From Candidatus Latescibacterota bacterium (lineage in GTDB: Bacteria > Latescibacterota > UBA2968 > GCA-2709665): a DNA stretch of 64,000 nucleotides. Position 1 is the stretch's first letter, and every line of letters starts with the position of its first letter. Where the stretch lies: positions 1,088,001 to 1,152,000 of the forward strand of contig CBDDDZ010000005.1 in NCBI GenBank assembly GCA_965226795.1, in the 5' to 3' direction. Made by a program: the position numbers. Below are positions 42,001-45,000 of the stretch, piece after piece.

Positions 42001-45000
42001 CAGATCGAAATGCTGGTCCTGAAGACCATGGCAGAGTTCGTGGGCCAGTACGGCGTCCAGCACATTCTCAGGAAGGTTTTGTTTCAGGATGTAAAACCTG
42101 TCCACGTCCGGATCGTAATATGCGAGCGTGCCGGATTGCAGAAACGTGAGTACCAGCGAGCGATCGAGGATGAACTCTCCGCTGTATAGCCCCAGTTTTC
42201 GAATCACGAGATCGTAGTATTCCCAGTCCATAGCGGAATATTGCAGGTCGATCTGGCGTTCGGCGTACGCCTGAAACTCGGATGGACTCTGCACCGCGAC
42301 GTCGATGGACCACTTGAACTCAAGCTCCCGGATCTGCGAGATCTCTCCTTCAATCTGCCTGGCTCTGCGCCTGAGTTTCGCCAGACTCTGAGCCCCTACG
42401 GGAACCTCTGAAAGGACGACTGTGAGACAGGCGAACGACGCCAGAAATCGGATGAGGCCCATAGGGATCCGAACCTCAAGTAACGGATTCTTTTTCAGAG
42501 GCGCGGCGGCGGGCTTCCCGGCCCTTTTCGGGGGTGGGATCTTTAACGAGGCCGTAGGATTCCCTGCCTTCATGTCCTTCCGGCAGGTATTCGGTGACGG
42601 GCAACCCTTCGGGGGTAACGAAGAGCAGGCAATGGCAGTATTTGTAGATCTTCATCTCGTCGCAGGCGCAGATCCATTCCCTGCTGCGTTCGAGTTCCGC
42701 TTTCTTGTCGGGGTAGAAGTTGCACGGGCACAATGGACGACCGAGTTCGTCGACGTGCGCGGCCAGGCCGTTGACAACGGCTTCGGTGATGCCGCGGTCG
42801 GGATGGCCGGTGGTGCCGGTTTTCTCGCAATATTTCTCGAAGTAGACCCACATGCGCTTGAGGCTCTTTTCCGATGGCTGGTCCATTGGGGACCTCCGGT
42901 GTGTTTGGGGGTGTCAGGGTCGATGGGTGAAGCGGGAGCGTCAAATTCTGAGCGGATCCGGACTGAGGGCGCCGAAATTGATTTGAACGTGGCTGTATGG
43001 TGAAGCTATACGTGCTGATCCACGAGAATGGGATTGCCGTCGGGGTCGACAAGAACGAAACTGGCCGGGCCGGTCGACTCTTCGTCTGCCTCAGATTGCA
43101 AAGCCACGCCTCTTGCTTTGAGTTGCCGTTGTAACTCTCTGACGTCTGTAAACGCATCCAGTTTCGCGGCGTCCTCATCCCAACCCGGATTGAACGTCAG
43201 GATATTTTTTTCAAACATCCCTTGAAACATACCGATTGTACACCCCCTGTTCTTCATTATGAGCCAATTCTGCGATACATCGCCTCCGAAGACCCGAAAT
43301 CCCAGCTTTTCATAAAAGGACTTTGAAATCTGAATACTCTTAACATCCAGACTCACTGAAAATGCACCCAATTTCATGTTGTCTCCCGGCAGGCCCTTTG
43401 CGTTGCGGCTGACCTTGCTGTATGGGAATTTCTGATTCGCACCACGCGGCCGATCGGATTGAAAATGGGACCGGGAGGCGCGGGACATTTCGGGGCGAAC
43501 GTAACCGCAACCCGAATTACGGAGTAAAATTCAAATCCCCGGTTTTACCGGGGATTTTTGGTCTTATCGCGGTGAGTTCGGCAGTTGCGTTCGACATTTC
43601 AGTTGCGGCGGCAATCCGAAGGATCACGCACGATGTGCGTGATTATTGATGGCCGGATCCTAATGTAAACTGTTGAGATAGTCCATGGATTTCTTGAGCT
43701 CGGCTTTGGGGTCGCTCCCGGGTGGGATCGCGCATTCAAAGCCGCTGTAATGTCTATAACCGATATCTTCCAGAGCCTGCAGGGCAGGCCTGAAGTCGGT
43801 ATGTCCGTAGCCCGGAAGGATTCGGTTGCTGTCGGCCAGATGCACATTGGTGATCAGTTCGCCGCAGCTGCGAATCGCTTGGGCCATATCGGACTCTTCA
43901 ATGCTCATGTGAAAGAAGTCAGCCATCAAAGTGACACCGGGTCTGTTGACGGCATTGCAGATTTGGAGCCCGTCCGCGAGGGTACACGGCCACCACTGTT
44001 CGTATCGGTTGAGCGGTTCGATAATGACGCTGCATCCGCATGTTTCGGCGTGTGGGGCGATATCTTGCTTGAGAATGTCCGTGAGCAGGCTCGATTCCAG
44101 CTGTGCGGTGGTCGCAAAGGGAGAAAGATCGGGAATACGATGGCCATTCTGGAGTTTTATTGCAATCAGCGGCGGGAATATGACACCTACGCCGCCCAGG
44201 TCGCCGCAGAGTGTGAGCGCGTCTTTAAGGTCCTGCGCCGCCTGCCTTCTTTCCGCGAGCCTTGCATCGAGAAGGCCCATCGTTCCGCGGATTGAAAAGA
44301 TGTTAGGGGTGACGCCTGTTTCCTCAGATGCCTTGCGGATTTCGTCTGCGTGTTCGACCGAGCTGCTGGCTGTGATTTCGATGCCTTCGATGCCGATTTC
44401 CGCAAGGTTGTGGAATTTTTCCAGGATGGAGTTCCCTGGCGCCATATTTTCACGGATGGAGTATTTCAGCGGCATATGGGTCTTCCCGGGTGCCCGGTCA
44501 CGGGCCTATGGATCCAAGTGAAATTGCGGCGGCTGTTGAGCCGTTGAGATAGGACACCTTCACGAATCGCGCAATATAGGGTCTGTGATGTGAAATGTCA
44601 AGGGATGCGCCGGCCGCGTTCGCGGGCCCATTCGAATTTCACGGTAAACCCGGGCGAGTTCGGCCCCGGTCGCATCATTCTGGAATTGAGGGAATCAATC
44701 TGGCGCTCCGAATCCTTTCAATCCGGAACGTCCGCTCGCCTTTGCGGTGCCTGCAAAAGCCGTAAAGTACGCCGTGATCTTCGAAGATCGGTTCAATCGA
44801 ACGAGATGATGCCGTGGCGTTGCGTTCGGCGTGGTATTCGATTTCAAGGCAGAGACAATGGTCGATAGCATATCCGATGAGACTCCGTATGTCGGCCTCA
44901 CCTGTGGCGGGGTTGGTGCCAGGGTAATGAATAAGCGCCTGGATACCGTCGCGAGACCGCCCGCCACTGAACAGCGATTCAAAAGTCTTGCTATAGTCGT

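Follow-up and report, generated by a model that had tools for sequence, protein, structure and literature searches.

How does a bacterium that encodes thioredoxins but no NADPH-dependent thioredoxin reductase (TrxB) keep those thioredoxins reduced? The question arises from a 64,000-nucleotide stretch of DNA, here called the window, from a genome (G000; 5.41 Mb in 5 contigs, 95.9% complete) whose closest named relatives are mostly titled Candidatus Latescibacterota. On its minus strand, at 42476..42886, lies the genome's single gene for a stand-alone catalytic chain of ferredoxin:thioredoxin reductase (FTR). Textbooks present FTR as what couples light to the regulation of enzymes, and a preliminary description had proposed that in this host, and across its class, it stands in for a lost TrxB. 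The explanation that we favour, with a probability of roughly 0.7, is that the gene product is a single-chain [4Fe-4S] ferredoxin:thioredoxin reductase which would now serve as the cell's main thioredoxin reductase, its cluster, substrate, electron donor and electron source all being assigned by homology.

The open reading frame begins with an ATG, 6 nt behind a Shine-Dalgarno-like GGAGG read from the sequence (42893..42897, minus strand), and encodes 136 amino acids. The protein passes the curated cut-off of the Pfam family FeThRed_B (PF02943; E 4.9e-21, 75.2 bits against a cut-off of 22), and its best relative of solved structure is 7bzk, the catalytic chain of chloroplast FTR (E 1.8e-23). 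Counted by hand, 42 residues are identical across query residues 3-93, which gives about 46% identity where the preliminary description had 48%. The full cysteine set reported earlier is present in the layout CPC-x17-CAC-x8-CHC, with the CPC motif (C53, C55) at 42722..42730, CAC (C73, C75) at 42662..42670 and CHC (C84, H85, C86) at 42629..42637, all on the minus strand, and these seven residues align in register with those of 7bzk and 1dj7. Across an alignment of 70 sequences (A1), C55 and the whole CHC motif are invariant, the second motif is CAC in 70/70, and C53 is at least 90% conserved. By homology to the roles known in FTR, we take one cysteine of the CPC motif to be a cluster ligand and the other to belong to the active site. 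The AlphaFold2 model has a mean pLDDT of 86.8, and its core, residues 1-95 (42602..42886, minus strand), superimposes in VIA-align on plant and cyanobacterial FTRc with Z of 10.5-12.2 and an rmsd of 1.4-1.6 Å over 86-94 residues. By profile, motifs and predicted fold the protein belongs to the FTRc family, and homology suggests that it binds a cluster. Records titled Binatia, Nitrospira, Tectomicrobia, Dehalococcoidia, Planctomycetota and Methylomirabilota also contain this type of FTR, at 66-82% identity.

Beyond the core lies a C-terminal extension of 41 residues (residues 96-136; 42479..42601, minus strand), in which P96, T98, E99, L101, P102, Y111, D116, P119, G122 and R123 are invariant (n=70). 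Most of it is ordered in the model, with a pLDDT of 87-92 for residues 81-120, and it is unmatched to plant and cyanobacterial FTRc, as the top eight structural alignments end at residue 95. We considered that the extension might be a structural copy of the variable subunit, FTRv, and rejected this: the model shows helices and loops, and no FTRv description appeared among the fold matches of the whole protein, within which the extension was searched. At E<=0.01, none of five genomes, namely G000 and four single-contig relatives, had a match to FTRv itself (PF02941); a Synechococcus control was positive. A scan for promoters and terminators at the gene gave nothing exceeding chance. RNA libraries from at least two studies contain the FTR stretch, but their contigs also cover intergenic DNA and genes on the opposite strand, so they provide no evidence of transcription.

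The statement that G000 has thioredoxins and no TrxB was borne out. With 30/30 candidates scored, the best match to TIGR01292 has an E of only 4e-14, while two WCGPC thioredoxins are encoded (Trx1, C5:1043389-1043718, and Trx2, C5:2203271-2203603). We classified 15 flavoprotein open reading frames fetched from the PF07992 and TIGR01292 matches, leaving out weak PF07992 matches at C3:494500 and C5:974662. They comprise SthA, Lpd, a MerA/Lpd-like protein, an HcaD-like protein, SoxA, several oxidases and a 181-aa flavoprotein like TTHA0370; among them we saw no Gor, Mtr, YpdA, CoA-disulfide reductase, AhpF or GltD-like protein, and no full-length TrxB-fold gene was found in the genome. Reduced thioredoxin is nevertheless in demand, since beside the two thioredoxins the genome encodes one ribonucleotide reductase, of class II, BCP-type and other peroxiredoxins, MsrA, MsrAB and a DsbD-like protein. 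The host looks from its gene content like an aerobic heterotroph: it has a superoxide dismutase and a heme-copper oxidase subunit I (CoxI, E 6e-173, under the curated cut-off), and Latescibacterota associated with sponges are described as aerobic heterotrophs (PMC12993501). It is apparently non-phototrophic, judged only by short sequence motifs. Such motifs, which are weak evidence, found no genes for the reverse TCA cycle, Rubisco, reaction centres, sucA, gltD or the synthesis of glutathione, mycothiol or bacillithiol.

If FTR does this work, it needs a ferredoxin and a means of reducing it. The small ferredoxin of G000 (C3:106037-106306), whose cysteine spacing we take to be of the 7Fe type, has FdxA_Actino as its best model, below the cut-off, and is encoded between a NirA/SirA-family reductase and gltB. 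A 2-oxoacid:ferredoxin oxidoreductase (OFOR) exceeds the TIGR03710 cut-off, a second OFOR-like pair is also present, and in a relative (G006) a second ferredoxin adjoins a second OFOR. The classical donor to FTR is a plant-type ferredoxin. No free one was found in G000, where the best match to PF00111 has an E of 3.2e-9 and all eight matches lie in frames of at least 177 aa. The genome also encodes one 170-aa Fer2-HTH protein. Ferredoxin and OFOR each occur in 128/132 genomes of the class; being nearly universal, they would precede and permit the switch to FTR, and they do not explain it.

What ties FTR to the loss of TrxB is their distribution. The near-exclusivity of the two had been described in 81 genomes of the class. 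It holds in a set of 132, in which 16 candidates per genome were scored for TrxB at E<=1e-25: FTR occurs in 47 and TrxB in 80 (78 exceeding the profile cut-off), so that 43 genomes have FTR only, 76 TrxB only, four both (G023 and G072-G074) and nine neither. FTR is spread over seven genera and three families, the number of families given before. The nine genomes with neither are all in at least 340 contigs, and in six of them the expected locus is absent or at a contig end: in G026 the contig stops about 160 bp short of FTR, in G028 the FTR region falls between contig ends, in G081 a contig begins next to the trxB position, and G032, G083 and G091 lack the region altogether. The other three are G008, G025 and G038. 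No well-assembled genome among the 132 is without both genes. A Fisher test on the two-by-two table gives p 4e-21, which we set aside because related genomes are not independent. The same caveat on kinship had been raised with a count of about three events; the caveat stands, and about five gains or losses underlie the pattern.

In an rpoB tree of 29 genomes, the order divides into two families, each with an FTR clade and a TrxB sister group. Clade A comprises g1, g3, g4 and g5 (support 87/87) and clade B comprises g6, g7 and g11 (100/100), whereas TrxB is kept by g2 and by g9 with g10, and by g8, which is unplaced. TrxB appears to be ancestral in the order, since its tree tracks the rpoB tree and trxB sits near speD/E in g2, g8, g9 and g10; its CxxC and NADPH motifs are kept. 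The matching region of G000, G007 and G024, each with both flanks on one contig, holds no trxB remnant, and in clade B trxB is absent from 21/21 g11 genomes, many of them single-contig, by an absence count that does not draw on synteny. The trxB of G023, one of the four genomes with both genes, lies on a 4.4-kb contig of its own and does not group within the order's TrxB clade; it is foreign or a contaminant. A further case comes from genus g24, in which FTR is grouped with a Dehalococcoidia sequence: G075 and G076, which have FTR, show a clean mid-contig deletion of trxB of about 1 kb, while G079 keeps trxB and FTR was not found there.

The neighbourhood of FTR bears on how often the gene was gained. 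Upstream of FTR in the window is a sugar-phosphate isomerase/epimerase-like TIM-barrel gene (43660..44475, minus strand; PF01261), which the order's two FTR clades share at this upstream position (loci L008, L031, L041, L042, L044, L047, L048 and L061) and which serves as a synteny marker. In G000 a glyoxalase-family gene (43006..43395, minus strand; PF00903, E 1.8e-5) stands between FTR and this conserved neighbour; it was not found at 21 other FTR loci tested. The marker is present without FTR in G033 and G034, and genus g10 keeps it without FTR; a search of G004, G005 and G030 did not find it. At L042, of clade A type, and at L047 and L048, of clade B type, FTR sits between one and the same pair of neighbours, the TIM-barrel gene and a metallophosphoesterase gene. 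The unconstrained FTR tree separates clades A and B, but an AU test does not reject a single FTR clade (p 0.057). As both flanking genes are also shared, we prefer one ancestral copy and disfavour separate gains in the two clades.

Trees and synteny together indicate that the order's ancestor probably had both FTR and trxB. The simplest reading is then of three trxB losses, each with FTR present, and two or more losses of FTR in lineages that kept trxB, with no confirmed double loss. All trxB losses that a tree or a locus allows us to place fall in FTR-bearing lineages. Reciprocal loss with no confirmed double loss, over about five events, is what functional overlap leads one to expect. The idea of FTR standing in for TrxB is upheld, with corrections: the losses that could be placed all fall in FTR-bearing lineages, no other standard disulfide reductase was found in G000, and ferredoxin and OFOR are present. 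The history, however, was probably one of reciprocal loss from an ancestor with both genes, not of repeated replacement, and thioredoxin reduction by this FTR is predicted by homology.

Among other carriers of this FTR type the exclusion breaks down. We drew 50 other carriers from 80 loci of this FTR type, mostly from other lineages, and 49 of them have a TrxB-like match, 29 over the cut-off. Nine of these carriers were read: six have the CxxC, one is truncated before it and one is interrupted by the end of its contig. In the ninth, G148, which is a single chromosome with FTR, the TrxB-like proteins are all fusions without CxxC, and this may be a fourth trxB loss. FTR therefore does not generally displace TrxB, the exclusion is local, and in other carriers FTR may often have a narrower job. 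Such a job could also be its role in G000, with thioredoxin reduced from NAD(P)H through the MerA/Lpd-like class I oxidoreductase (C5:1750635-1752005), or by dihydrolipoamide via Lpd, and FTR kept for regulation tied to the redox state of ferredoxin. The TrxB-like genes found in so many other carriers favour this, as do the intact CxxxxC centre of the MerA/Lpd-like protein, its failure to reach a curated family cut-off among the 25 best listed and its presence in 123/132 class genomes. Leakage from lipoamide to redoxins is known from Escherichia coli suppressors. High-Mr thioredoxin reductases use a C-terminal cysteine pair, however, and the C-terminus of this protein has none; moreover, it is almost universal in the class, yet no trxB loss is seen where FTR is absent. 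We consider an NAD(P)H route of this kind unlikely.

A different candidate for the protein that released trxB is the 181-aa TTHA0370-like flavoprotein (C5:2753522-2754064), acting by itself or together with the DUF255 thioredoxin-domain protein encoded next to it, while FTR merely travels along. It is related to the FAD domain of TrxB, is encoded directly behind the DUF255 gene in g1, g3, g5 and g11, and also tracks trxB loss, being present in 49/52 trxB-less class genomes (FTR: 43/52) and absent from the TrxB-keeping g2, g8, g9 and g10. The preliminary description had named it as an alternative. It has no CxxC, though, with one cysteine in the G000 copy and zero in those of G006, G024, G027 and G045; it lacks the middle NADPH/disulfide domain, and its full-length match is only to the 180-aa TTHA0370 protein, for which our literature search returned one incidental listing. 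The flavoprotein occurs in 85/132 class genomes, in 36 of them alongside TrxB, and it is absent, mid-contig, from its own locus in G007 and G008. G007 also has no trxB, so that FTR is the only one of the three that it carries. No match to the flavoprotein at E<=1e-25 was seen in the 50 other FTR carriers, a search run with no positive control. That FTR and the flavoprotein are obligate partners was rejected, because g4 has FTR without the flavoprotein and because of this negative result in the 50 carriers. Of all the readings weighed here, release of trxB by the flavoprotein is the one to which we give least credence.

A last alternative concerns the substrate. Like FDR enzymes, this FTR might reduce a glutaredoxin or NrdH-like redoxin, such as the DUF836 protein of G000 (C5:501804-502199), which has a CxxC, or other disulfides, and act on WCGPC thioredoxins indirectly or not at all. 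Methanosarcina FDR acts on non-canonical thioredoxins and not on WCGPC ones (PMC6262447), and a fusion of glutaredoxin and FDR exists (7pwe). Yet the FTR model is much nearer FTRc (Z 11-12, rmsd 1.5) than the FDRs (Z 6.5-6.8, rmsd 3.4-4.0). In addition, no redoxin gene was recognized, from translations, among the 45 largest clusters of flanking open reading frames at 90 FTR loci, and the reciprocal loss suggests that FTR and TrxB act on a common substrate. An FDR-like role seems to us about as improbable as the NAD(P)H route.

In the scheme that we favour, with FTR as main thioredoxin reductase, OFOR would reduce the 7Fe-type ferredoxin, and two one-electron transfers via the FTR cluster would open the active-site disulfide. 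FTR would then reduce one or both WCGPC thioredoxins, which would pass electrons on to the class II ribonucleotide reductase, the peroxiredoxins, the Msr enzymes and DsbD. An ancestor in which TrxB and FTR had overlapping roles could have given rise to descendants that lost one or the other, never both. A bolder version can be held only tentatively, with the odds somewhat against it: the whole cytoplasmic thiol-redox supply, including that of the sole ribonucleotide reductase, would depend on a one-subunit Fe-S reductase that draws its electrons from OFOR by way of a 7Fe ferredoxin, and NADPH would contribute nothing; the conserved, ordered C-terminal extension would protect the cluster against oxygen as a substitute for FTRv; and the clade that spans Latescibacterota, Binatia, Nitrospira, Dehalococcoidia and Planctomycetota would represent a single-chain FTR able to tolerate oxygen.

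FTRc in non-phototrophs was already known, and what is new here is the evidence from reciprocal loss. Our literature search, whose reach did not extend to the clade list of Balsera et al. (2013), found no report of FTR in Latescibacterota, nor of exclusion or reciprocal loss between FTR and TrxB. The relatives known from non-phototrophs have so far been tied to microaerophilic CO2 fixers or to anaerobes. The reciprocal loss described here provides genetic evidence that FTRc can take on the general housekeeping job of an NADPH thioredoxin reductase in a respiring heterotroph. The small protein and its candidate partners Trx1, Trx2 and the 7Fe-type ferredoxin offer a way to ask how FTRc functions with neither FTRv nor a plant-type ferredoxin, and whether it withstands oxygen. 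The answers would be relevant to the role of FTRc in the time before FTRv was added in cyanobacteria. For annotators, the absence of a recognized thioredoxin reductase from such genomes should not be taken as a missing pathway.

Among known systems, the plant and cyanobacterial enzymes (1dj7, 7bzk, 7c2b, 7c3f) are the closest in the core fold, the sequence of residues 3-93 and the aligned six cysteines and histidine. They differ in having a second CPC, in 7bzk and 1dj7, where CAC stands here; in a first spacer of 16 residues against 17 here and in 60/70 aligned relatives; and in their C-terminus, in place of which the FTR described here has its own 41 residues. They are also heterodimers, whereas neither a variable subunit nor a free plant-type ferredoxin was found here, and in this respiring, apparently non-phototrophic host FTR seems to be the sole thioredoxin reductase. 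FTRc with no FTRv outside phototrophs is known from deeply rooted bacteria that are not photosynthetic (Balsera et al. 2013, as cited in PMC9025218), and those homologues are tied to microaerophiles that control the fixing of CO2 through the reverse TCA cycle. The absence of FTRv is thus common to both, while the host that looks like an aerobic heterotroph and the reciprocal loss with trxB set the present case apart. The FDR of Methanosarcina (4tpu) and the Grx-FDR of Desulfotalea (7pwe) likewise have a single-chain FTR fold in a non-phototroph, but are more distant in sequence (18-23% identity) as well as in structure and carry rubredoxin or glutaredoxin domains; the FDR-type C-terminal rubredoxin-like domain is absent here, where no cysteine follows C86 and the protein has 136 aa against 173. 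Methanosarcina FDR also occurs beside NTR (PMC6262447). A functional precedent is FFTR/DTR of Clostridium, Gloeobacter and Prochlorococcus, which PMC8154056 presents as a ferredoxin-dependent sole thioredoxin reductase in Gloeobacter and Prochlorococcus and as a partner in FTR/FFTR substitution. On that account a cell can live with only a ferredoxin-dependent thioredoxin reductase, but there the enzyme is a flavoprotein of the TrxB fold, unrelated to the Fe-S protein to which we assign the task here.

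In the source genome, G000, a NirA/SirA-family reductase, a 7Fe-type ferredoxin and gltB are clustered on contig C3 (102858-111126; L118) with no adjoining gltD, an arrangement that suggests ferredoxin-dependent assimilation in an aerobe. On contig C5 (2902423-2911031; L203, L113), a pyruvate dehydrogenase cluster of aceEF-lpd-like type has a PorA/PorB-like OFOR pair immediately upstream, and a scan of G000 for the sucA motif, using short sequence patterns, gave no match. The genome G045 has FTR and no TrxB, and the score pattern of its only match to the ribonucleotide reductase large subunit (C1:4767146-4768753; L182) differs from that of the class II enzyme of G000.

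One rival candidate for releasing trxB is a 181-aa TTHA0370-like protein that consists of an FAD domain only (G000 C5:2753522-2754064; L117). It is found in 85 of the 132 class genomes, where it is strongly conserved at 51-94% identity, and in several genera it is directly preceded by a DUF255 thioredoxin-domain gene. The protein has no conserved cysteine, and across the same 132 genomes it is absent from the genera of the order that keep TrxB.

Within the window, the gene downstream of FTR reads as two overlapping open reading frames (40953-42573). Compared with the window, contigs from three RNA runs are 10 bases shorter at 41906, so the interruption of the frame may reflect either a mistake in the assembly or a peculiarity of the strain. 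On the other side of FTR, the TIM-barrel gene is preceded by a gene encoding an 850-aa protein with Helicase_C_3 and WYL domains (44675-47227), which holds this upstream position in genera g1 and g5. Over FTR itself, contigs of RNA runs X1, X5, X7 and X9 align at 42618-42676 with high contig depth; they represent a different FTR variant from organisms other than G000, and this depth is unusable for ranking expression.

In three genomes of family f3 (G001, G002 and G003; L169, L170, L220, L222), TrxB shares an open frame with a glutaredoxin domain, suggesting a Grx-TrxB fusion in this family. The trxA-trxB pair of G023 comes from a contig of 4.4 kb whose GC content is higher (C108; L163); it encodes a TrxB outside the clade of the order and is contamination or a re-acquisition. 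The single chromosome of G148 (L071, L223, L224) carries the same FTR type as G000, and its two TrxB-like matches, one with a fused receiver-like domain, both lack CxxC; one of the two contains masked bases, and a further trxB loss is possible in this genome. Finally, a Dehalococcoidia TrxB-like protein in G177 (L180) retains CxxC and is missing the usual HRR motif for NADPH; the protein may be ferredoxin-linked.
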